Assembly: GCA_025057955.1 (NCBI GenBank)
Contig: JANXER010000003.1
Coordinates: 2,181-66,180, forward strand
DNA: 64,000 nucleotides
Direction: 5' to 3'
Source: Candidatus Methanomethylicaceae archaeon
GTDB taxonomy: Archaea; Thermoproteota; Methanomethylicia; Methanomethylicales; Methanomethylicaceae
This document shows, one piece after another, positions 6,527 through 56,370 of this stretch; the stretch's first letter is position 1; the number at the start of each line of letters is the position of its first letter. Below the pieces are notes generated by a model that saw only the letters and a program-made list of their open reading frames with translations, made no database searches and had not been told where the DNA came from. The translations under genes were made by a program, and so were the position numbers.

Positions 6527-7742
6527 ATCCTATTAGTCTCCATCTACCAGTTATCATTCTACTAATTGCAACCCTCATTCCAGACTCAGCGCAAACTGGA
6601 CGTTTTAAAATTAAATTTACCTCATCTCTATGTACTGAGGCTACTGTGCCAAGTGTTACAGCTGATCCTACAACAAGCATAAGATTCTCCCTAGGCTTCA
6701 ATTGTTCAACTCTGTGAAGTTCTTTTGTTCCAACAGCTCTTTCCAATAGGGAAAATTTTATGGTCAAATTATCCTGAATGGGAGGAAGAGTTCCAGGCTT
6801 GCCAACAATGTTTCCAACAAGTCCATCCGCTTTAGTTATTGTAGGATCTAAATATGTTCCAACACCTATGAGGCCGCCTGGTCCTACTTCTTCTAGGAAA
6901 TGTCCTCCTGCCATTAGACTAGAAACATACGTATATATTGGCTCATAATAGACTTTGCCTCCTTGTTCCACCTTAAGTCCCGGACTAATTTCTATCTCAT
7001 CACCTACTCTTAATCTTCCCTGAATTAAAGAGCCTCCAAGCACTCCGCCCTTTAAATCCATAGGTCTAATTCCAGGTTTATTTATATCAAATGATCTTGC
7101 TATATACATTCTTGCTGGTTTGGATGAATCTCTAGGAGGAGTTTTTATTCGATCCTCAAGAACTTGAATTAAATAATCAATATTTGTACCATAGATAGAG
7201 GATATAGGGATTATAGGAGCATTTTCTGCAATTGTGCCTTTAATAAATGATAAAATCTGATTATAGTTCTCAATAGCCTTCTGCTTATCCACAGCATCTA
7301 TTTTATTCTGAACAATTACAATATTTTTTATTCCTATTATTTCTAAAGCGACTAAATGTTCTCTAGTCTGTGGCTGAGGACATTCCTCATTAGCAGCTAT
7401 TACCAATATAGCACCATCCATTAAAGCAGCTCCAGATAACATAGTAGCCATTAGACTCTCATGACCTGGAGCATCAACAAAAGAGATTTTTCTGAGAAAT
7501 ATCGTTGGAATATTATGTATTGGACATATCTCTTTCGTGGTGAAGCATTCAGGAGGAGGGCATTCAGGACATCTTCTAAAAGTAGTATCAGCATATCCCA
7601 GCTTTATTGTAATTCCTCTTTTTAGCTCTTCACTATGACGAGCTGCCCAAACACCACTAAGAGCAGCTACAAGAGTAGTTTTTCCATGATCTACATGACC
7701 GGTCAAGCCTATATTACATTCTGGTTGCTTATATTCAACCAT
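6510..7742 (-). CDS. eif2g: Translation initiation factor aIF2 gamma subunit
   Basis: GHVDHGKTT P-loop, zinc knuckle CPxC...C, EF-Tu-like domains II/III; 410 aa. Confidence 0.95.
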   Translation of the reverse strand: MVEYKQPECNIGLTGHVDHGKTTLVAALSGVWAARHSEELKRGITIKLGYADTTFRRCPECPPPECFTTKEICPIHNIPTIFLRKISFVDAPGHESLMATMLSGAALMDGAILVIAANEECPQPQTREHLVALEIIGIKNIVIVQNKIDAVDKQKAIENYNQILSFIKGTIAENAPIIPISSIYGTNIDYLIQVLEDRIKTPPRDSSKPARMYIARSFDINKPGIRPMDLKGGVLGGSLIQGRLRVGDEIEISPGLKVEQGGKVYYEPIYTYVSSLMAGGHFLEEVGPGGLIGVGTYLDPTITKADGLVGNIVGKPGTLPPIQDNLTIKFSLLERAVGTKELHRVEQLKPRENLMLVVGSAVTLGTVASVHRDEVNLILKRPVCAESGMRVAISRMITGRWRLIGYGYVQ

Positions 7743-8091
7743 TTTTTTCCTCCTTGAGAACTAAGTTTATCTGAACTATATCTTCAGTTATCATGTTTCC
7801 TCTTACTAACTTCCTCCTCCTCTCACCTTTTCTTTTGGGATGATAGCCAGGAGGGCCAGAAAGAAGTATGTATTTCTTAGCTCCTCCTGGTATATCTGGC
7901 CTCATTGGAATACCGCTTTTATCACTTCCGCCTGTTATTACAAGCTTTTTGCCAGGGTGACCAAAGACCTCACCATCAACATGGTCGCCTATTTTTAGAC
8001 CAATGAAAATTTGTGCCATTTCATCCTTCACATTAAGCGCTTTGGATGTACCATCTTCTGGATTAGATATAACAAGTTTAAACTCTACCAA
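7735..8091 (-). CDS. rps6e: 30S ribosomal protein S6e
   Basis: S6e family sequence (GFPMRPD-like IPMRPDIPGGAKK). Confidence 0.9.
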   Translation of the reverse strand: MVEFKLVISNPEDGTSKALNVKDEMAQIFIGLKIGDHVDGEVFGHPGKKLVITGGSDKSGIPMRPDIPGGAKKYILLSGPPGYHPKRKGERRRKLVRGNMITEDIVQINLVLKEEKNG

Positions 8092-8152: not shown

Positions 8153-9956
8153 TTATTCAATATTCTTCAACTCTCTATCTAAGTAAATCTTTAGAATTTT
8201 ATCAAGAAGTTCTAGCTCCTCTTGTGAAAGTCTATCCTTGAACTTCTCCTTAAGTAGGAATATATCATTTTCACCAACTGCTACATAAAGAATTTCGCCT
8301 TCCTTAACTTGACGTCCCACTATAAAATCACCTTTAACAGATATTGCAACTTTATCTCCTCTCTTTGCCATTTCAATATTGATTCCACGATCTTGTATCT
8401 GTAAAATTTCCCCAATGATTTCTCCATTTTCCTTCATTAATGGATAGCCTGGTTTTATGTAACCAAGTAAAACTTCGATACCAAATATCGGTGGAGAGCT
8501 CCTTCTAAATACATATCCAGGTAAAATTCTTAAAACTCCAGGAAGGATTATTTGACTAAACTCCCTGGAACGCATTTCCTCGATAGTCTTAGTATACCAA
8601 GCTTTGAAATCATCAACTATATGATATATTACATTACTAACGAAAATAGGAATCCCTCTATTTTTAGCTTCTATACTTGCTTCATGAGTCACATTGATAT
8701 TAAATCCTAGAATAGCTCCGAACTCAGGCTTTTTCCTCTTAACAATAGATGCTTCTATTATATCCTTTTTTCCAATTGGACCAATATCAGAAATTCTCAC
8801 CGGAATACCTGAATTTCTTAGAAATTTCACAAGTGCTTCTAAAGATCCCAGTGTATCTGCCTTTACCACAACACCATTTATATCGGAGTAGAATCTCAGT
8901 TCTGCCATTTCTTCACTTATCTTATTCTTTGCAAGCTCAATGGATGCTTCATCATTTGCTACTATTACTGGAGCACCACTAATTGCATCCTCTAATCCAG
9001 GTGCTACAATCTTTACACCAGCAGCTGCAAAAATTTTTTCAGTAGAAATGAATTTGTCCTCGGGATCTCTTATTTCATTTAATGGTTTAGGAAGTAAAAT
9101 AGCTCTGATCTTAGTTACAATTGGTCCATTCAATCCACCAACTACAATTGTATCACCCTTCTTTAATATTCCATTGAATAATATTACATCCAGGGTCTTT
9201 CCTAATCCAGGATCCTCCTTTGTTTCAAGCACCACTCCTTCACCAGGACCTTCTGTGGTGGATAATCTATTTGTTAAATAATGTTGTGCAAGCCCACAAA
9301 TTAAAGCAAGAAGCTCAGGAATACCCTCTCCAGTAACAGCGCTTGTAGGCACAATGGCGATCGTTCTGGTGAAATCTCTTATTCTATCATATCTATCAGA
9401 GGAAAAGCCATATCTTGCAAGCTCACCAATTACTCTATTTATCATATCATCTAATCGCTCTCTCACATAGGATTCTTGAAGCTTATAAGATTCAATAAAA
9501 GATTTATTTGGATGAGATTTCCATCCTGGGATTCTATCAATCTTATTTGCTGCAACTACAAAGGGAGTTTTACGAGATTTTAAAATTTCAATACATTCTT
9601 CAGTTTGCCGCTCAACTCCTTTTTGAATGTCAATAACAAGTATTGCAATATCCGATACTGAGCCTCCTCTAAATCTTAAATTAGAAAATACCTCATGACC
9701 AGGCGTATCTATAAATAATATTCCTGGTACTTTCAATTTAGCTTCAAATCCCTTTATAACAGAGCTACAATACTTAACAATAACATCCATGGGTAAGAAG
9801 CTGGCACCGATATGTTGGGTTTGCCACTGCTTAGATAGCAGTCATGGCCCCAACCTCGCGTGCCATTACACTAGTCCCCCTAATCCTATCTAGTAATAAA
9901 GTCTTTCCAACATCAACATGACCAAGAACAGTAACTATTGGCTGTCTAATTGGCAT
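8153..9956 (-). CDS. infB: Translation initiation factor aIF5B (IF2 homologue), interrupted by a predicted 22-nt BHB intron at 9821..9842; exons 9843..9956 and 8153..9820
   Basis: The upstream ORF 9831..10013 encodes the G1 region ([36 protein letters not shown]-). The downstream ORF 8153..9790 encodes the rest (TQHIGASF...DTPGHE...). They are in different frames, separated by an insert that folds as a canonical BHB; removing it restores the frame and the conserved motif. Confidence 0.85.
9821..9842 (-). other. Predicted bulge-helix-bulge (hBHBh') splicing-endonuclease intron within the aIF5B mRNA
   Basis: mRNA fold GUUGGG-GCCA-[UGA]-CUGC-UAUCUAA-GCAG-UGGC-[AAA]-CCCAAC: 6-bp outer helix, 3-nt bulge, 4-bp central helix, 3-nt bulge, 4-bp inner helix, 7-nt loop. 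Cleavage after the 2nd nucleotide of each bulge excises exactly 22 nt. Confidence 0.75.
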
Positions 9957-9990
9957 TATTCTCACCCTGTAAATATAATTAAAAAACCTT

Positions 9991-10440
9991 TTAATAAACA
10001 AAAGCTTCATCAAGACGAGAATATTTCAAAAAATCTGAATTTTTGAAAAATATGGAGAGTTCTCTCTCAGCACTTTCTAAAGAATCTGATGCATGAATTA
10101 TGTTCATGCTTTTTGAGCATGAGAAATCGCCTCTTATTGTTCCAGGAGGAGCTTCTTTTGAGTCTGTAGGACCAATAATTCTTCGCATTATAGATATAGC
10201 ACTTTCTCCCTCTATGGCCATAATAACGACTGGTGCAGATCTTATGAAATTTACTAAATCTTTATAAAATGGTTTATTTTTATGAACCTCATATAATTTT
10301 TCTGCTTCTTCTTCAGATAAATTTATCATCCTCATACCTACTATCTTCAATCCTTTCCGCTCTATTCTGGAGATTATTTCACCTATAAGACCACGAACTA
10401 TGGCATCTGGCTTTATCATGACAAAAGTTCGTTCTATCAT
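9991..10440 (-). CDS. ndk: Nucleoside diphosphate kinase
   Basis: FVMIKPDA..., NIIHASD active-site His motif. Confidence 0.9.
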
Positions 10441-15163: not shown

Positions 15164-15927
15164 TTAGCATCAACTCTTGTGCAGATTATTTCCTCTCCTA
15201 TTAGTAATTTAGTAAGTAAACCCGGACGAGTTATATTAAAGATTATGGAGGTTTTTCCACCTTTACCTAAATAATCTTTTATCTCTAGGAGTTTACCAAC
15301 CATTCCTCCTGTTACATCATATTTTGAATTACCTATTTTTGGTAGTAAAGAATTTATTTCTGAGAATTTTACTTTTGATAATATTCTTCCATTGATTATA
15401 ATTCCATCAACATCTGTTCCAAATATTAAAGCCTTAGCATTAAATCTAATTGCAAGCATTGAAGCAATTCTATCACCAGATAATATCTTGAAATCATTCA
15501 ATTCATCAATTATTACATCCCCACCAAGTATAGGAATCATATTATGTTTCAATGAAAGCTCTAAAGGATTCAAAAAGTATTTTAATTCATCATTAGTAGT
15601 AAAAAAAATACTAGATGAACTTATTGGAAATATTGGAACTCCATACTTCAGAAATTTTTCTGAAATGATTTTAGCTAGAGAGAGCATAGCACATCTAACT
15701 TCTGAGACTCCAATGCAATCCTTTAATTTACCATTTTTTAGATATTTTTTAGCAGCAAAATGACCAAAAGATCCTCCACCATATACTATAATCATTGATG
15801 GTAAATGTTTCAATTTGGAAAGCTCAAATGCAATGTTTTCAATAACTTCAATATTAGGAGTCATGGGAGAATCTTTTTTTGTAATAGCACTTCCTCCAAG
15901 CTTTATTACATATTCAATATTACTCAA
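15160..15927 (-). CDS. ipk: Isopentenyl phosphate kinase (amino-acid-kinase family)
   Basis: VIKLGGSAITKKD N-terminus, ~255 aa, sitting within the isoprenoid gene cluster. Confidence 0.8.
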   Translation of the reverse strand: MSNIEYVIKLGGSAITKKDSPMTPNIEVIENIAFELSKLKHLPSMIIVYGGGSFGHFAAKKYLKNGKLKDCIGVSEVRCAMLSLAKIISEKFLKYGVPIFPISSSSIFFTTNDELKYFLNPLELSLKHNMIPILGGDVIIDELNDFKILSGDRIASMLAIRFNAKALIFGTDVDGIIINGRILSKVKFSEINSLLPKIGNSKYDVTGGMVGKLLEIKDYLGKGGKTSIIFNITRPGLLTKLLIGEEIICTRVDAN

Positions 15928-16732
15928 TTTCAGTCACCCCATGATCTATGAAATAATATTTTTGAAAGGCTCCATATTGTGAGAAATCCTTTGGTGTTAA
16001 TATTATATGACCAACTATATCTCCAGCAGATATAACCTTTGCACCATAAATATTTTTAATTTTAGAGATTTTAAGTAGCTCTTTAGGTTTTATTAGGCCT
16101 AAGGTGAGGGAAAGACCAGATTCTATTGATAGAAGTCGTCCTAGCTTTTCAAAATCTCCTCTCCTTATAGCTTTTCCTCCCTCTATAGTTAAATGTCCTA
16201 TAGTGTGTAGAATGGGTTGATATAACTCTGGAAAATCATTGGCAAGCCTTTTGAGGATTTTATTTGAAAATTTTCTTCGATTCTTTATATTAATAAGAAT
16301 AGCAGAGTCCAAGCTACCATCTATTGATATTGCCCCCTCACTCTTTCTAAATATTACAAAACCTCCAGAAAGAGAAGTAAGAGCTCTCATTAATGTAATT
16401 AATGACGCCCCATGCAACTTATCCATTAGATCGATAATATCATCTTTAAAAAATTCGTAGGCTGAATATAATATAGATGTTAATGATAAGAAGTCATCAT
16501 TTGAAGGGATTACATTAACCTCAAAACAAAATCCCTTCTCTGTGAGATATTTTTCCATAACCTTCTTTATGAATTTATCGAAAATAGGAAGACTTGCTCT
16601 ATGGAAACTATTTAGTGAAATCTCAACCTCTCTAATGAAACTTATTGTTGAGAATAAAGTAGGATTATTAGTATCTATAAAGGCCTCACCAAGAATAGGA
16701 ATGGAAAATGGTATTCTCAGCTTACTTTTCAC
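15920..16732 (-). CDS. GHMP-kinase family protein, mevalonate-kinase-like, with a degenerate phosphate-binding loop
   Basis: N-terminus SIPILGEAF (compare MVK KVILFGEHAV); C-terminal GHMP motif IYGAKVISAGDIVGHIIL. The expected PxGxGLGSSAA loop reads IPSNDDFLSLTS instead. Confidence 0.6.
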   Translation of the reverse strand: MKSKLRIPFSIPILGEAFIDTNNPTLFSTISFIREVEISLNSFHRASLPIFDKFIKKVMEKYLTEKGFCFEVNVIPSNDDFLSLTSILYSAYEFFKDDIIDLMDKLHGASLITLMRALTSLSGGFVIFRKSEGAISIDGSLDSAILINIKNRRKFSNKILKRLANDFPELYQPILHTIGHLTIEGGKAIRRGDFEKLGRLLSIESGLSLTLGLIKPKELLKISKIKNIYGAKVISAGDIVGHIILTPKDFSQYGAFQKYYFIDHGVTEIE

Positions 16733-21949: not shown

Positions 21950-22049
21950 TGGCGCCGAGGGGGGGATTTGAACCCCCGAGCCCATAATGGGCACAGGCTC
22001 TCCAGGCTTAAGCAATCTTCTGCTCCCTACCAGACTAGGAGACCTCGGC
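21950..22049 (-). tRNA. tRNA-Ser (anticodon GGA), type II, with an encoded CCA end and a predicted 12-nt non-canonical intron (22008..22019) at position 29/30
   Basis: Acceptor GCCGAGG/CCUCGGC, G73, T-loop GGGGGUUCAAAUCCCCC, long variable arm GCCCA-UUA-UGGGC. Removing AAGAUUGCUUAA gives a perfect anticodon stem CAGGC/GCCUG with loop CUGGAGA. Confidence 0.7.
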
Positions 22050-22084
22050 TCAATTCAATATTTTAATAAAATAATCCTTTAAAC

Positions 22085-22727: not shown

Positions 22728-23690
22728 TCAATTCCAACTCTTAGGATAAGTTCCAGGCTCCATTACTATTCTTTCCATATCTACAACAATTCCATGATCA
22801 GACTCTAGTATCTCCCTACTTGATTTTAACGCCTTTCCTATGCCTATCAACTCTCCCTTCAAAGTCATAATACAAACAAAATCTCCAGCTTTTATATTCT
22901 TACTAATGCGTAGAACACCAGGAGAGGCAAGATTAGCACCATGACAAAGAGCATCTACAGCAGAATCTCTAACATATATCTTTGGAATGTCTAATAATGT
23001 TTCTTCTATTGGCAAAATTATTCTCCTCAAAAGGGATTCATCATTCCTTTCCTTCCATAAAGTTATAGCATCTAAAAGAGAATGAAGAGTTATAGAATTC
23101 TTTTCAGTGAACGGTCCAGCTCTAATCCTCCTAAGTTCTTTCATATGTGCACCACAGCCCAATACTTCTCCAATATCATGACAAAGCTTTCTTATATAAG
23201 TTCCAGCTTCACAATCCACCTTCATAAGCACATATTTTCCAATTCTCTCAAGTATTTTTATGGAATTTATAGTTCTAATTCTTAATGCTCTTTTAACAGA
23301 TGATCTTATTGGAGGAAGCTGATATATAGGGCCAATAAATTCTTCAATAACCCTTTTAAGATTATAATCGCTCACATCTCCATGTAATTCCATTATAGTT
23401 ACATATTCCTTCCCAGACTTCATTATAAAGGAAACAAGCCTTGTTGCTCTTCCAAGCGTTATTGGTAAAACTCCTGTAACCTTTGGATCAAGTGTACCTC
23501 CATGTCCTGCTCTATCTAAAGAAAGAAGTCGCTTCACCCATGCTACTACTTCATGACTAGTTGGTCCAGGAGGTTTATCTAAGTTTATAACACCAGTTTG
23601 TATATATTCTTTTATTGGTCTTAATCTAGGGTACCATCCAAAATTCAAATCCGTGGATTCTTCATCCTTTATAAGTTCTTCATTCTTCAA
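22728..23690 (-). CDS. cbf5: H/ACA RNP pseudouridine synthase Cbf5 (TruB family plus PUA), uninterrupted
   Basis: ...KPPGPTSHEVV...GHGGTLDP... catalytic Asp motif and C-terminal PUA domain; 320 aa in a single ORF. Confidence 0.95.
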   Translation of the reverse strand: MKNEELIKDEESTDLNFGWYPRLRPIKEYIQTGVINLDKPPGPTSHEVVAWVKRLLSLDRAGHGGTLDPKVTGVLPITLGRATRLVSFIMKSGKEYVTIMELHGDVSDYNLKRVIEEFIGPIYQLPPIRSSVKRALRIRTINSIKILERIGKYVLMKVDCEAGTYIRKLCHDIGEVLGCGAHMKELRRIRAGPFTEKNSITLHSLLDAITLWKERNDESLLRRIILPIEETLLDIPKIYVRDSAVDALCHGANLASPGVLRISKNIKAGDFVCIMTLKGELIGIGKALKSSREILESDHGIVVDMERIVMEPGTYPKSWN

Positions 23691-39266: not shown

Positions 39267-39644
39267 ATGGAAATTGATAGAAATGATCTAATGCGAATAA
39301 TAAAATATGCGAAAAAATTTTGTGAAGATAGATGTCCAGCAGAAAGAGATCCAGACGTATGCTTGGCCTTAATAGAAATATGTAGAGAACTTAATATAGA
39401 ACTACCTTCATGTGTAGAGGAGACTGATGGTTTTGTTAAATCTTACTTCATAGCAAAGATAAGAGAGATAGAAAGCAGATGGAAGAAAAGTGTAAGGGAG
39501 ATAATTAAGGAGATAGAAGTTAGAGGAGCAAGACATTTTGAGGAAGAGTTGGATAGAATGGAAGCAGAGTTTGCAGTTAAAGCAATAAAGGCAATAGACA
39601 ATAGAGTTCTTGAGAAGGAACTTCGCAAAAAATCCCAATTCTAG
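39267..39644 (+). CDS. Hypothetical small protein (125 aa, Cys-containing helical), co-transcribed with valS
   Basis: Clean ORF with a 12-nt gap to the valS start; no recognised family. Confidence 0.5.
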   Translation: MEIDRNDLMRIIKYAKKFCEDRCPAERDPDVCLALIEICRELNIELPSCVEETDGFVKSYFIAKIREIESRWKKSVREIIKEIEVRGARHFEEELDRMEAEFAVKAIKAIDNRVLEKELRKKSQF

Positions 39645-39655
39645 GAGGGCAACTT

Positions 39656-42052
39656 TTGGAAAAGCTCTATTCACCAAGGACTATTGAAGAGAAATGGCAA
39701 AGGGCATGGCTATCGCCAGAGTATTACTCAGTTTTTAAATTTAAGAATGATGGAAGACCAACCTTTATAATAGATACTCCACCGCCCTTCACTTCAGGAG
39801 AATTGCACATGGGACATGCATATTGGAGTGTAATAAATGATACAATAGCCAGATATAAAAGAATGAAAGGCTTTGATGTTCTATTGCCACAAGGATGGGA
39901 TACACAAGGCTTACCTACTGAGCTTAAGGTTCAATATAAATGGAAAATACCCAAAGACAATAGAGAACTATTTAGAAGTAAGTGTATAGAATGGACGAAA
40001 ATTATGATAGAAAAAATGAAGGAAGGCATGATAAAGCTGGGCTATAGGCCAGATTGGGAGCAATTTGAATATAAAACCATGGATAGGGAATATTGGAGAG
40101 CTGTACAATATAGCTTAATATTGATGTTTGAGAAGGGATTAATCTATAAAAAGGAGTTTCCTGTACATTGGTGTAGTAAATGTGGCACTGCACTTGCTCA
40201 AGCAGAAACTGGTTATATTCAAAGAAAGGGGAAGTTATATTACATAAAGTTTAGGATGGATAATGGATATATTTTGATTGGAACTACTCGTCCAGAGCTT
40301 CTAAATGCTTGTGTAGCTATTGCAGTTAATCCAAAGGATGAAAGATATAAGAATATTATAGGAAAAGAGGTAGAAGTTCCAATATTTGGTCAAAAAGTAA
40401 GGATTTTGCAGGATGAAAACGTTGATCCAAAGTTTGGAACAGGAATTGTGATGATTTGCACATATGGTGATGAACAAGATATAAAGTGGCAGCAAAGGTA
40501 TAATTTACCAATAATAAAAGCAATAGATGAAGAAGGCAGAATGATAAATGCTAAGGAATATAATGGACTTAAAATCGAAGAGGCTAGGGAAAGAATTGCC
40601 AAAGATCTTAGGGATTTGGGATTTTTAGAAAAGGAAGAGGAAATTCTACATAATGTATTGGCACATACAGAGAGATCAGATTGTATGACACCCATAGAAT
40701 TCCTCATTAAGGATCAATGGTTCTTAAAATCAAAGGAACTAAAAGATATGGTAAAGGAAGAGGCAGAAAGAATGCAATGGATACCTAAATATATGAAACA
40801 ACGCTTAATAGATTGGATAAATAATATAGAATGGGATTGGGTAATATCAAGACAAAGAGTGTTTGGGACACCAATACCATTCTGGTATTGTAGAAACTGT
40901 GGTTTTATTATACCACCAAAAAAGGAAGATCTTCCAGTGGATACTACAAAGGATAAACCTCCAATAAATTATTGTCCAAACTGCAATAGTGAGGATATTA
41001 GTGGAACAAGCGATGTTTGTGATTGTTGGATAGATTCCAGCATTACTCCATTAATTATTACTGGATTCTTTAAAAATAAGGAAATATTTAATAAAGCATA
41101 TCCAGTGGATGTGAGACAGCAAGGCCATGATATTATAAGGACTTGGTTATATTATACTGTTTTGAGATGTAGAATTTTGACTAATAATGGTCCCTTCAAA
41201 AGCGTTGTAATAAATGGACACATTTTAGGACCAGATGGTTCAAGAATGTCCAAATCAAAGGGAAATGTAATAATGCCTGAGGAAGGCATATCAAAGTATG
41301 GAGCAGATTCTCTAAGACAAGCTCTCCTACTATTGACACTGGGTTCAGATTTTCCATTTAGATGGGAGCCAGTTAAATATGGAAAGTCCTTTCTACAAAA
41401 GCTTTGGTCTTCAGTAAGATTTGCAAGTCAATTTATTAATGATAAAATCGAGATAAATTATGAAAACTTAAGCGATATAGATAAATGGATTTTATCAAGG
41501 CTAAGAAATGTTATAAAAATAGTAAGTGAGGCTATGGAAAACTATCAATTCCATATTGCTGTTGATGCACTACAGCAATTTTATTGGCACGACTTTTGTG
41601 ATCAATATATTGAAGCAGTAAAACCAAGACTTTATAATTCAAAAAATCAAGATGATTTCAATACCGCAAGAGCCGTTATTTATAAAGTGATATGGGTTTT
41701 CATAAGAATGTTTGCACCAATATGCCCACATATAACCGAGGAAATATATCATAGAATATTCAAAGAATATGAAAAATTCATTTCAATAAACATAGCGCCA
41801 TATCCAACTATGAATGAAATTCCAGAATTGGATGGAGATAATGGAGAGAAGGTAATAAAAATAATAGCAAAACTTAGAACAAAGAAAGTGGAGAGAAGAG
41901 TTTCACTATCCTCACCCATAAAATATGCAGTAGTAAAAGATAGAAAAGAGATGCTTGATGCTTATAGAAGAAATGAGTGGCTAATTAAGGAAGTTCTTCA
42001 TATAGAGAAAATAGATTTCTTAGAAGGAGAGCCAAGTCTGGAACTAGAGTAG
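39656..42052 (+). CDS. valS: Valyl-tRNA synthetase (class I)
   Basis: PPPFTSGELHMGHA (ValRS-type PPP..TG.LH.GH), ...WVISRQRVFGTPIP..., KMSKS as RMSKSKGN; 798 aa. Confidence 0.8.
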   Translation: MEKLYSPRTIEEKWQRAWLSPEYYSVFKFKNDGRPTFIIDTPPPFTSGELHMGHAYWSVINDTIARYKRMKGFDVLLPQGWDTQGLPTELKVQYKWKIPKDNRELFRSKCIEWTKIMIEKMKEGMIKLGYRPDWEQFEYKTMDREYWRAVQYSLILMFEKGLIYKKEFPVHWCSKCGTALAQAETGYIQRKGKLYYIKFRMDNGYILIGTTRPELLNACVAIAVNPKDERYKNIIGKEVEVPIFGQKVRILQDENVDPKFGTGIVMICTYGDEQDIKWQQRYNLPIIKAIDEEGRMINAKEYNGLKIEEARERIAKDLRDLGFLEKEEEILHNVLAHTERSDCMTPIEFLIKDQWFLKSKELKDMVKEEAERMQWIPKYMKQRLIDWINNIEWDWVISRQRVFGTPIPFWYCRNCGFIIPPKKEDLPVDTTKDKPPINYCPNCNSEDISGTSDVCDCWIDSSITPLIITGFFKNKEIFNKAYPVDVRQQGHDIIRTWLYYTVLRCRILTNNGPFKSVVINGHILGPDGSRMSKSKGNVIMPEEGISKYGADSLRQALLLLTLGSDFPFRWEPVKYGKSFLQKLWSSVRFASQFINDKIEINYENLSDIDKWILSRLRNVIKIVSEAMENYQFHIAVDALQQFYWHDFCDQYIEAVKPRLYNSKNQDDFNTARAVIYKVIWVFIRMFAPICPHITEEIYHRIFKEYEKFISINIAPYPTMNEIPELDGDNGEKVIKIIAKLRTKKVERRVSLSSPIKYAVVKDRKEMLDAYRRNEWLIKEVLHIEKIDFLEGEPSLELE

Positions 42053-42660: not shown

Positions 42661-44124
42661 TCAGCCCTTGGTCACCCCTATTGGAATCATTCTCGCCACA
42701 AGTGTAGCAATTCCAAGCTTATGAGAAACCTCTGCTACTCTATCCACATCCTTGTATGCTCCTGGCGCTTCCTCGGCTATAACTCTTATATTAGCTGCTC
42801 TAATCAAAACTCCCTTATTTTCTAACTCTCGCTTAACTTCATTGCCCCAATATTTCTTCATAGCAGCTTCCCTACTAAGATATCTTCCTGCTCCATGAGC
42901 AGTAGATCCCCAGCTTAGTTCCATAGCTGCTGGTGCACCCAAGAGTAAGTAAGATGCAGTACCCATGCTTCCAGGTATTATGACCGGTTGACCTATATCC
43001 CTATACTCTTGAGGAAGTTCAGGGCGACCTGCAGGAAAAGCTCTAGTGGCACCCTTTCTATGAACATAAACGATCCTTCTCTTTCCATCATAAATATGTT
43101 CTTCTCTCTTTGCTAAATTATGTGCAACATCATAAACTAAATGCATTCCTAGTTTTTCAGGATCCATCTTGAATACTTTTTGAAAAGCCTCCCTCGTCCA
43201 ATGTGTAATACATTGTCTATTTGCCCATGCGTAATTGCATGCTGCAGACATAGCTGCAAAATAATCTCTGGCCTCTGGACTGTTAGCAGGAGCACAAGCA
43301 AGCTCCCTATCTGGAATTTTTATCTTATATTTTGAAACAGCATGATCCATTACATGAAGATAATCGCTACAAACCTGATGACCTAATCCTCTACTTCCTG
43401 AATGTATCATTACTACTACTTGACCTTCATGTTCTATTCCAAAAGCCTTAGCAACCCTTTGATCATAAATTTTGTTTACTACTTGAACCTCAAGGAAGTG
43501 GTTTCCACTTCCAAGCGTACCAAGCTGACTTGCTCCTCTGGATTTCGCACTAGAAGATACCTTAGTATGATCTGCAGTTTTCATGCAACCCTCTTCCTCA
43601 CATCTTCTAGCATCTTCATCCCAACCATATCCTTGCTCTATCGCCCATTGAACACCCATCTCAAGCACACGATTTTGTTGCGTTGTATCTAAACGTATTC
43701 CACCCTTACTTCCAAGGCCAGATGGAACTAAGTCGAATAGAGCATCTATCAATTTAGAGAGATGAGGGCGAACATCCTTTATGTCTAGATTAGTTAATAC
43801 TAACCTAACTCCACAATTAATATCATATCCAACTCCACCAGGGGAGATTACTCCCTCCTCTGCATCAAAAGCTGCAACACCACCTATTGGAAATCCATAG
43901 CCTTGATGTCCATCTGGCATTGTAATTGAATATTTTAAGATTCCAGGAAGATGTGCAACATTTGCACATTGCTGAAGTGTTAAATCCTCCTTCATTTTTT
44001 CAAGAAGATATTCATCTGCATACACTCTGCAAGGAACCCTCATATTTGGATTATAACTCTTTGGAATTTCCCAAATGTACTCATCTATTTTTTTAAGTGG
44101 AATGTTTGTCATGTCCATCACCAA
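42661..44124 (-). CDS. rtcB: RNA-splicing ligase RtcB (3'-phosphate/5'-OH tRNA ligase)
   Basis: 487 aa, no intein; RtcB motifs (...[10 protein letters not shown]..., ...[11 protein letters not shown]..., ...HGAGR...). Confidence 0.95.
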
Positions 44125-44193
44125 TAAATCATAAATATTTTTCCTTAATTGTAATATAGTAAGGATATAATTAAATTTTAATGAGGATGAAGT

Positions 44194-44616
44194 ATGGTAT
44201 ATTATTACTTAGATCATACATCTGACGTCTATATTCATGTAATATCAAACAAATTAGAGGGAATATTTGAAGATGCAGCAAAGGCTACCTTTGAAATTAT
44301 GATAGATACATCAAGTGTAGAAGAAAAAGAGATTATAGATTTAGAGGTTGAAGGGAAGGATCTTGAACAATTGCTCTATAAGTGGATAGATTGTATTTTA
44401 CTTATATTCGATTCGAAAAGCTTTGCTCTTAATAGAGCTAAAGTTGAAGAAATAAAGAAGAACGAAAACTATCATATAAAAGCAAAGCTCTATGGAGAAG
44501 AGTACGATCCAAAAAAGCACGATCATAGAACTGGAGTTAAAGCTATGACCTACTCCTTAATGAGGATATTTAAGAGCAATGATCATTGGGAAGCTTATTT
44601 TGTAGTAGATATATAA
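44194..44616 (+). CDS. Archease (RtcB activator)
   Basis: [14 protein letters not shown]...[16 protein letters not shown] matches the archease N-terminal signature; divergent from rtcB. Confidence 0.85.
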
Positions 44617-44651
44617 AAGAATTTAACACTGAAAGTATTATTAAATAATGG

Positions 44652-44756
44652 GCCGGGGTGGCTGAGTGGTTAAGGCGCCGGCCTCGAGATCTCATAAAAG
44701 GGACAGGTGAGCCGGTCCCCCTATGGGGGTCAAGGGTTCGAATCCCTTCCCCGGCG
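44652..44756 (+). tRNA. tRNA-Ser (anticodon CGA), type II, with a ~21-nt canonical (37/38) intron at about 44689..44709; CCA not encoded
   Basis: Acceptor GCCGGGG/CCCCGGC, G73, anticodon stem CCGGC/GCCGG with loop CUCGAG[intron]A, variable arm CCCCC-UAU-GGGGG, T-arm AAGGGUUCGAAUCCCUU. Confidence 0.85.
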
Positions 44757-44767
44757 CCCCTTTTTGG
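44757..44767 (+). terminator. Oligo-T stretch immediately after tRNA-Ser(CGA)
   Basis: ccccTTTTTgg directly 3' of the tRNA; archaeal terminators are simple T-runs. Confidence 0.4.
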
Positions 44768-56230: not shown

Positions 56231-56370
56231 TGGTCCCGCCCGCCGGATTTGAACCAGCGACCACCCGGTATTTGCCCAGCTAACGCAGGCTCATCTTATG
56301 CCCATAGGGCGGAATTACCTGCGCGACTCATAGTCTACAGCCGGGCGCTCTACCACTGAGCTAGGGCGGG
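56231..56370 (-). tRNA. tRNA-Tyr (anticodon GUA) with a ~65-nt canonical-position intron (~56269..56333) and an encoded CCA
   Basis: Acceptor CCCGCCC/GGGCGGG gives the C1:G72 pair characteristic of archaeal tRNA-Tyr, with A73. D-arm GCUCAGUGGUAGAGC, anticodon stem CCCGG/CCGGG, loop CUGUAG[intron]A, T-arm GCUGGUUCAAAUCCGGC. Confidence 0.85.

Follow-up and report, generated by a model that had tools for sequence, protein, structure and literature searches.

What does it mean when a universally conserved translation factor appears in a genome as two open reading frames (ORFs) that do not share a frame? This question is raised by the gene for the translation initiation GTPase aIF5B (annotated as infB/IF-2) on a 64,000-nucleotide stretch, here called the window, of contig JANXER010000003.1 from a Candidatus Methanomethylicaceae archaeon (assembly GCA_025057955.1). 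A preliminary description of this DNA had placed the gene in two out-of-frame ORFs, 9831..10013 and 8153..9790, and both are indeed found, on the minus strand and in different frames. It had also claimed that excising 22 nucleotides (9821..9842) would fuse the frames and rebuild switch I. This proved correct, as the removal joins MPIRQ...AREVGAM to TQHIGASF... and yields a 593-aa aIF5B, in which switch I is as long as that of other archaea (EVGAMTQHIGA compared with the usual EAGGITQHIGA). We consider it highly probable, at about 0.92, that these 22 nucleotides are an archaeal bulge-helix-bulge (BHB) intron lying inside the aIF5B coding sequence. The finding is real, far beyond what chance would produce, and apparently unreported.

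Exon 1 starts with an ATG at 9956, preceded by a Shine-Dalgarno-like GGGUGAG at 9967-9961, and holds the P-loop of the G domain, the rest of which is in exon 2. If the RNA is not spliced, the exon-1 frame continues into ACU GCU AUC UAA. No conserved start codon exists near TQHIGA in exon 2, and gene callers start 10-65 residues downstream, by which the G2 motif is lost. In GenBank the gene is represented by MCS7097609.1 (9834..9956, minus strand), a 41-aa "hypothetical protein" consisting of exon 1 plus three intron codons, and by MCS7097608.1 (8153..9811, minus strand), a 552-aa IF-2 without a P-loop; the nearest database entry is a 100% identical 552-aa "IF-2" from a Candidatus Methanomethylicaceae metagenome-assembled genome (MAG). 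Every public record that we checked, in Methanomethylicaceae as well as in Nezhaarchaeales (see below), splits aIF5B in this manner, into a hypothetical protein of 40-46 aa and a P-loop-less IF-2 of 506-569 aa, and the public exon-2 gene calls contain the IF-2, GTP_EFTU and GTP_EFTU_D4 domains. In database searches all gene calls of both groups were N-terminally truncated, whereas those of other Thermoproteota were full length. Such a split annotation affects marker-gene and completeness analyses of these lineages.

The RNA around the insert reads GUUGGG-GCCA-[UGA]-CUGCU-AUCUA-AGCAG-UGGC-[AAA]-CCCAAC (bulges in brackets; coordinates in Table 1). Helices and bulges are arranged as had been described. 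The outer helix (6 bp) and the inner helix (5 bp) consist of Watson-Crick pairs only, and the motif is a strict hBHBh'. Loose BHB-like geometries occur 16 times in the window, compared with approximately 23 per shuffled window (range 15-31). The all-Watson-Crick 15-bp hBHBh', in contrast, is found only once in the window, at the aIF5B site, and in none of 25 dinucleotide shuffles. The single-sequence minimum free energy (MFE) fold obtained with ViennaRNA has -24.1 kcal/mol (z = -3.07; 0/200 shuffles equally stable), and the motif is kept in the MFE fold of contexts of 151-431 nucleotides. In cbf5 introns the predicted cut falls between the second and third bulge residues (PMC2738675). Cutting the aIF5B RNA after the second nucleotide of each bulge removes exactly 9842..9821, and restores both the frame and the residue count. 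The junction can be placed only to within 2-3 nucleotides, because the intron and exon 2 begin with identical bases.

The preliminary description had pointed to infB of related genomes as a check, and these genomes carry inserts at the same site, with the same BHB fold and with compensatory changes. A protein-guided scan of one genome per species gave 29 loci. In 18 Methanomethylicaceae loci and in the window there is an insert at the identical position, 22, 25, 27 or 33 nucleotides long; two members of the family (loci L014 and L027) and the outgroups have none. Among the insert-bearing genomes are the complete ones of Ca. Methanosuratincola petrocarbonis LWZ-6 and Ca. M. verstraetei LCB70, both cultivated methanogens, as well as Ca. 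Methanomethylicus mesodigestus V1. Another 30 insert-bearing loci (22-33 nucleotides) came from a DNA-pattern scan of JGI metagenomes; one further pattern match, L035, was discarded since it lies in an unrelated gene. The loci found by pattern include a second insert-bearing clade, with 55-58% identical protein, which has Ca. Nezhaarchaeales MAGs as its nearest named relatives. NCBI taxonomy puts Methanomethylicaceae and Nezhaarchaeales in different phyla, and in GTDB the two groups are orders of one class. Altogether the insert is present at the same site in 48 further loci besides the window. The insert sequences are unrelated, with 38 distinct inserts falling into seven lengths (22, 25, 27, 29, 30, 31 and 33 nucleotides), and the spliced products of the insert-bearing loci are all aIF5Bs of about 590 aa.

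Whether these inserts, unrelated in sequence, share a structure can be asked of the alignments directly. In a first alignment of 17 distinct sequences, which had been found independently of the motif, 95.7% of the cells are paired, compared with 24-47% when the 3' partners are slid, and two-sided changes are seen in 6/7 inner-helix pairs. With all 38 sequences, 95.8% of the cells are paired (27-41% with slid partners) and 7/7 inner-helix pairs covary, in 94 cells versus 30 ± 4 in shuffles, a value that none of 500 shuffles reached. The covariation score is 0.44; shuffles give 0.16, and slid partners no more than 0.11. RNAalifold, run unguided on the 38 sequences, yields exactly hBHBh'. The central helix is fully paired (4/4) in 38/38 sequences and the outer helix (6/6) in 37/38; the motif is strict in 33/38, and the remaining 5/38 have a single inner-helix mismatch. 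Some noncoding positions are also invariant, namely the intronic strand of the central helix, UGG (followed by C or U), and the first A of the 3' bulge.

The insert itself is not translated into protein. The lengths of the 38 distinct inserts cover all three frames, and a stop codon in the exon-1 frame is present in 37/38 of them, compared with 4/38 and 3/38 in the other two frames; for inserts whose length is divisible by three the count is 29/29. The location of the stop varies, some inserts having it within the loop, others within the inner stem or spanning the 3' bulge (UGGUAA). This near-universal stop points to selection against translation of unspliced mRNA, and bears on the way in which splicing and coupled translation can coexist in a cell without a nucleus. 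The exons, on the other hand, are under strong purifying selection at the protein level. In exon 1 nearly every residue is invariant across the 48 loci, but three or four synonymous variants are seen at four-fold degenerate codons, and exon 1 is therefore translated and under protein-level selection.

There is, however, one set of synonymous sites that does not vary in this way. The third positions of the helix-forming codons GUU, GGG and GCC before the junction and ACC after it are invariant in 19/19 of the loci found by protein similarity. In contrast, each of six intronless lineages (L014, L027, L061-L065) has at least one synonymous change at these positions (GGT/GCA, GTC, GGA, GCA, GTG/GCT and GTC/ACG). 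The difference, 0/19 versus 6/6 changed, has a Fisher probability of about 6e-6 when phylogeny is ignored. Such freezing of synonymous sites is the mark of an RNA structure, and it is confined to genes that have the insert.

The genes that lack the insert also tell us what a spliced junction should look like. Six intronless genes read EVGAM/TQHIGA (the slash marks the junction), encoded as ...GCN ATG/ACN CAR..., so that ATG stands directly before ACN, just as predicted for the ligated exons. A neighbour-joining tree of this single protein, calculated without support values, unites the insert-bearing sequences of both orders in one clade, sister to intronless Thermoproteota, with intronless members nested inside it at three or four places. 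In one such place the intronless L027 stands beside L034 and L050, with which its protein is 95% identical and whose genes have a 27-nucleotide insert. The simplest reading of the tree would be one old gain followed by several nucleotide-exact losses. Such precise losses, even between genes with 95% identical proteins, raise the question of how archaea delete such introns. A history of gain and then loss has likewise been proposed for the cbf5 introns (PMC2738675).

Can the spliced form itself be observed? The Methanosuratincola cluster of proteins at 90% identity has one member of 590 aa, known only from Logan assemblies; the five contigs that encode it come from runs SRR27720083, -84, -85, -86 and -89. 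The longest of these aligns with the LCB70 chromosome over 13,768 nucleotides with eight substitutions and a single indel, which is the 27-nucleotide insert ACCACGGCTGCTTTGCTGTGGTGGTAA; its background is thus 99.94% identical to that of the intron-bearing LCB70. The other four contigs have the identical 27-nucleotide deletion, and the junction is the same as predicted. Two of the five contigs start 16 and 14 nucleotides upstream of the start codon, about 37 nucleotides downstream of an ATTTAT element, which suggests a start that would suit the 5' end of a transcript. The insert-bearing form of the same species, with the unspliced exon-1 ORF, is known from at least 23 contigs from many other samples, and among the matches listed none came from the SRR277200xx runs. 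The most economical explanation is that the five insert-lacking contigs probably represent spliced mRNA; formally, they could also stem from a very recent and precise loss at the DNA level in a sister strain, within 0.06% divergence. A tRNA gene with an intron would have served as a control for RNA origin, but the 21-kb LCB70 region has no RNA genes. In ten more protein clusters no members of about 590 aa were found. P0467, which had clustered with the exon-1 ORFs, is an unrelated protein.

Two peculiarities of these contigs may be recorded separately. The last 28 nucleotides of the insert-lacking contig Logan SRR27720089_3205 (L068, 3071..3098) do not match the LCB70 chromosome at that place, and in two sister contigs the end falls one base short of a polymorphic site (L074:11858). 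Both look like effects of the assembly graph.

Several observations nevertheless weigh against an intron, or against its excision. The insert-lacking contigs differ from the LCB70 reference by a few single-nucleotide polymorphisms. An exact search of JGI metagenome contigs for the spliced junction GARGTTGGGGCCATGACCCARCAYATHGG gave 0 matches, and a search with a profile of the N-terminal 130 residues of the spliced proteins returned only short fragments from other lineages, none with a spliced junction (the best fragment, P0121, is 88% identical to an intronless relative). The MFE register in the window sequence is slid by one A-U pair, which leaves a 3-bp central helix, the canonical 4-bp register being only 0.1 kcal/mol above it. 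In the 30 loci found by DNA pattern the exon strands were fixed by the pattern, which by itself makes these strands invariant. No splicing endonuclease domain was seen in the 20 window ORFs that were scanned with Pfam. Finally, for the window's own organism splicing, including the endonuclease cut, is something that we infer.

One may also consider explanations in which the insert stays in the RNA. The ribosome could cross it by translational recoding, i.e. by hopping of the kind known from phage T4 gene 60, by frameshifting or by stop read-through, with the hairpin as stimulator. The aIF5B gene has a stop codon soon after the break and a stable hairpin, and so has the bypass site of T4 gene 60. 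However, the seven insert lengths would need shifts of +1, +2 and 0, which no single mechanism provides, and the take-off codon AUG has no matching or near-cognate landing codon at the 3' end of any insert, the last insert codons being CAA, CAG, UAA, UAG, CAC or UAU. Read-through of the in-frame inserts would put 9-11 unconserved residues into switch I, and what is conserved is the exact 3-nucleotide/4-bp/3-nucleotide BHB geometry rather than a mere hairpin. We therefore regard recoding as very unlikely. The same low probability applies to a gene that is truly split or decaying, whether it makes two polypeptides or only the truncated protein, or is a pseudogene or an assembly artefact. This is how public annotations treat aIF5B, as a hypothetical protein and an IF-2, but the same interruption is present in about 49 independent assemblies, two complete genomes among them, both parts are under strong purifying selection, and the insert covaries in a way that preserves its structure. 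The second part, moreover, has no conserved start codon, and its G domain would lack the P-loop, without which a GTPase does not bind GTP.

An even slimmer chance should be given to a hairpin that acts as a regulatory or DNA-level element, such as a protein-binding site or the palindromic remnant of a mobile element, and that resembles a BHB without being excised. The insert is an inverted repeat, and its inner helix is imperfect in 5/38 sequences, both of which this explanation would accommodate. Such an element would leave unexplained how functional aIF5B is produced, why the BHB cleavage product agrees, nucleotide for nucleotide, with the genes of intronless relatives, and why contigs exist that lack the insert and are otherwise identical to an insert-bearing genome. 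A further point against it is that the region has no Rfam family match at gathering thresholds. A self-splicing group I or group II intron, which would have a ribozyme core of hundreds of nucleotides, or an intein, which would be an in-frame coding insert, was rejected, as the insert has only 22 nucleotides, no Rfam match and, in 37/38 cases, an in-frame stop.

If the insert is a BHB intron, its removal may be pictured as follows. In the pre-mRNA, GUUGGG-GCCA (from Val-Gly-Ala-Met codons) and CCCAAC (from Thr-Gln-His codons) would pair with one another and with the 3' end of the insert, which would create two 3-nucleotide bulges around a 4-bp helix. The tRNA-splicing endonuclease would cut after the second nucleotide of each bulge, and RtcB with archease would ligate the exons to ...GCC AUG/ACC CAA..., a product in which the G domain is restored by joining the P-loop to switch I. 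The insert would be set free, probably as a small circle, and ribosomes on unspliced RNA would halt at its in-frame UAA. In LCB70 (CP186953.1) the predicted ligated junction is ...GGGGCCATG/ACCCAGCAC..., and that of the insert circle ...GGTGGTAA/ACCACGG.... The presence of the intron in cultivated methanogens (LWZ-6 and LCB70) makes aIF5B splicing directly testable.

It is tempting to ask whether such an intron is there for a reason. With an intron after 114 nucleotides of its mRNA, the subunit-joining GTPase aIF5B could be made only if the tRNA-splicing endonuclease and RtcB/archease are active, and this intron could be a retained control point, where the near-obligatory stop would silence unspliced transcripts in cells in which translation can begin during transcription. 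Were this true, it would be an archaeal counterpart of XBP1/HAC1-type control (see below), tying initiation capacity to tRNA maturation. We find a control point rather doubtful. The persistence of the intron in two order-level (in NCBI, phylum-level) lineages and the frozen synonymous sites are compatible with it, and equally with a neutral intron that is hard to lose.

Which parts of the required machinery are encoded in the window? The preliminary description had stated that the processing enzymes are encoded nearby, and for RtcB and archease Pfam bears this out (Table 1); the endonuclease was not among the 20 scanned ORFs. The other ORFs of the window (ribosomal, RNA polymerase and similar) were assigned by N-terminal sequence and gene order, and the gene order is corroborated by a Pfam-annotated related locus for roughly the first 19 kb only. 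The two intron-containing tRNA genes imply that the organism has a splicing endonuclease; the intron of tRNA-Ser(CGA), with 21 nucleotides, is of about the same size as the aIF5B insert and must be spliced as well. Apart from this, it may be observed that the ligase, its cofactor and one intron-containing substrate tRNA sit side by side (42661..44758): rtcB and the archease gene are divergently paired, and tRNA-Ser(CGA) begins 36 nucleotides past the archease stop codon. In the intron of tRNA-Ser(CGA), judged by eye, the 4-bp helix of the BHB contains a C-A mismatch and the inner helix is 4 bp long; the aIF5B motif is more regular.

Table 1. Positions in the window of the aIF5B exons, of the predicted intron and its structural elements, and of splicing-related genes
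Feature	Position	Strand	Remarks
aIF5B exon 1	9956..9843	minus	38 codons; holds the P-loop (G1 motif)
aIF5B insert, predicted BHB intron	9842..9821	minus	22 nt, ACUGCUAUCUAAGCAGUGGCAA
aIF5B exon 2	9820..8153	minus	555 codons + stop; from the switch-I/G2 threonine, TQHIGASF...
UAA stop in exon-1 frame, within the intron loop	9831..9833	minus	unspliced product ends after 41 residues
Whole hBHBh' motif	9854..9814	minus	fold, shuffles, covariation, RNAalifold
Outer helix, 6 bp	GUUGGG 9854-9849 with CCCAAC 9819-9814	minus	
Central helix, 4 bp	GCCA 9848-9845 with UGGC 9826-9823	minus	
Bulges	5' bulge UGA 9844-9842; 3' bulge AAA 9822-9820	minus	opposite strands, 3 nt each
Inner helix, 5 bp	CUGC(U) 9841-9837 with (A)GCAG 9831-9827	minus	
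Intron loop	9836-9832	minus	
RtcB RNA ligase	42661..44124	minus	487 aa; Pfam PF01139, E = 8.5e-179
Archease, RtcB cofactor	44194..44616	plus	140 aa; Pfam PF01951, E = 1.8e-42
tRNA-Ser(CGA), 21-nt intron	44652..44758	plus	Rfam tRNA 50.1 bits; ARAGORN intron mode (cga) i(38,21)
tRNA-Tyr(GUA), 65-nt intron	56231..56370	minus	Rfam tRNA 54.2 bits; ARAGORN intron mode (gta) i(37,65)

How does this intron compare with what is already known? Introns of cbf5 pre-mRNA were reportedly studied by Watanabe in 2002 and by Yoshinari in 2006, and they are treated by Yokobori 2009 (PMC2738675). The preliminary description had held that among protein genes BHB introns are known essentially only for cbf5. As far as coding sequences are concerned this stands, since the archaeal mRNA substrates named in the literature are cbf5 (coding) and HVO_1309 (5' untranslated region) only; the latter is, however, a documented exception to the claim as worded (PMC2738675, PMC7714728, PMC10485636). 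A review from 2023 counts two archaeal genes that are spliced in this way and expects more (PMC10485636). We found no published description of an aIF5B intron, in a search that left out most subscription-journal papers, so that a prior mention is possible. If spliced, the universally conserved translation factor aIF5B would provide the second coding-sequence substrate of mRNA splicing by the archaeal endonuclease, more than 20 years after cbf5.

The cbf5 intron of Desulfurococcales and Sulfolobales is similar to that of aIF5B in being a short insert in a coding sequence (16-44 nucleotides in cbf5) flanked by a BHB, in being lineage-restricted with evidence of secondary loss, and in being routinely mis-annotated as a frameshift (PMC2738675). 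It differs in its host, which is a pseudouridine synthase gene rather than that of a translation initiation GTPase in Methanomethylicaceae and Nezhaarchaeales, and in its structure, as most cbf5 motifs are relaxed (PMC2738675) whereas the aIF5B motif is a strict hBHBh'. The in-frame stop is nearly universal in aIF5B introns. In the window, cbf5 (22728..23690, minus strand) is one uninterrupted ORF of 320 codons with DKCLD, TruB_N, TruB_C_2 and PUA domains. The Haloferax volcanii HVO_1309 transcript (Schwarz 2020, PMC7714728; PMC10485636) likewise shows the archaeal splicing endonuclease acting on an mRNA rather than on tRNA or rRNA, but its intron lies in an untranslated leader and does not interrupt a frame, while the aIF5B intron must go for the protein to be formed. 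What the aIF5B case adds is deep conservation, the stop-codon rule and cultivable methanogen hosts.

Canonical tRNA introns at position 37/38 have a geometry identical to that seen here. Once the intron is out, the outer helix together with GCCAUGA gives a 6-bp stem with a 7-nucleotide loop, similar to an anticodon arm, and the insert is of the size class of the 21-nucleotide tRNA-Ser(CGA) intron in the same window; unlike those of a tRNA, its helices are made of the codons of a protein gene, with no tRNA body. A more distant comparison is with XBP1 and HAC1, where IRE1 cuts out a very short mRNA intron (26 nucleotides in XBP1), RtcB (in animals) or Trl1 joins the exons, and removal of the intron switches the frame to give the active protein, as a regulated stress switch. 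Common to both are a very short mRNA intron, a protein endonuclease and, in animals, joining by RtcB. In contrast, IRE1 recognizes twin stem-loops, whereas EndA would act on a BHB, and it is the XBP1/HAC1 system that is a regulated switch.

Elsewhere in the window no further split gene besides aIF5B was seen; the uL5 and Rpp29 regions had looked suspicious in the ORF map and prove intact. aIF5B itself is flanked, on the minus strand, by ndk (10440..9991) and by the gene for S6e (8091..7735). A conserved ORF of 270-276 aa (15920..16732, minus strand), between genes resembling those for isopentenyl phosphate kinase and Memo, lacks a Pfam match in the window and likewise in the precomputed annotation of the Methanosuratincola locus (L071, 2677..3507). 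Another ORF without a Pfam match, of 125 aa (39267..39644, plus strand), lies upstream of a 798-aa ORF (39656..42052), which, on its N-terminal sequence only, was taken for an aminoacyl-tRNA synthetase. Rfam at gathering thresholds finds three tRNAs only in the window, and no family at the insert region. A region at 21950..22052 (minus strand) is tRNA-like, having a 7-bp acceptor stem, a T-arm (GGGGGUUCAAAUCCCCC), a discriminator base and an encoded CCA. It is called neither by ARAGORN, including intron mode, nor by Rfam at the gathering score, and ARAGORN calls Ser(GGA) or Trp(CCA) once 10-25 nucleotides are deleted at various offsets; it is perhaps a tRNA gene interrupted by at least one intron at a non-canonical position.

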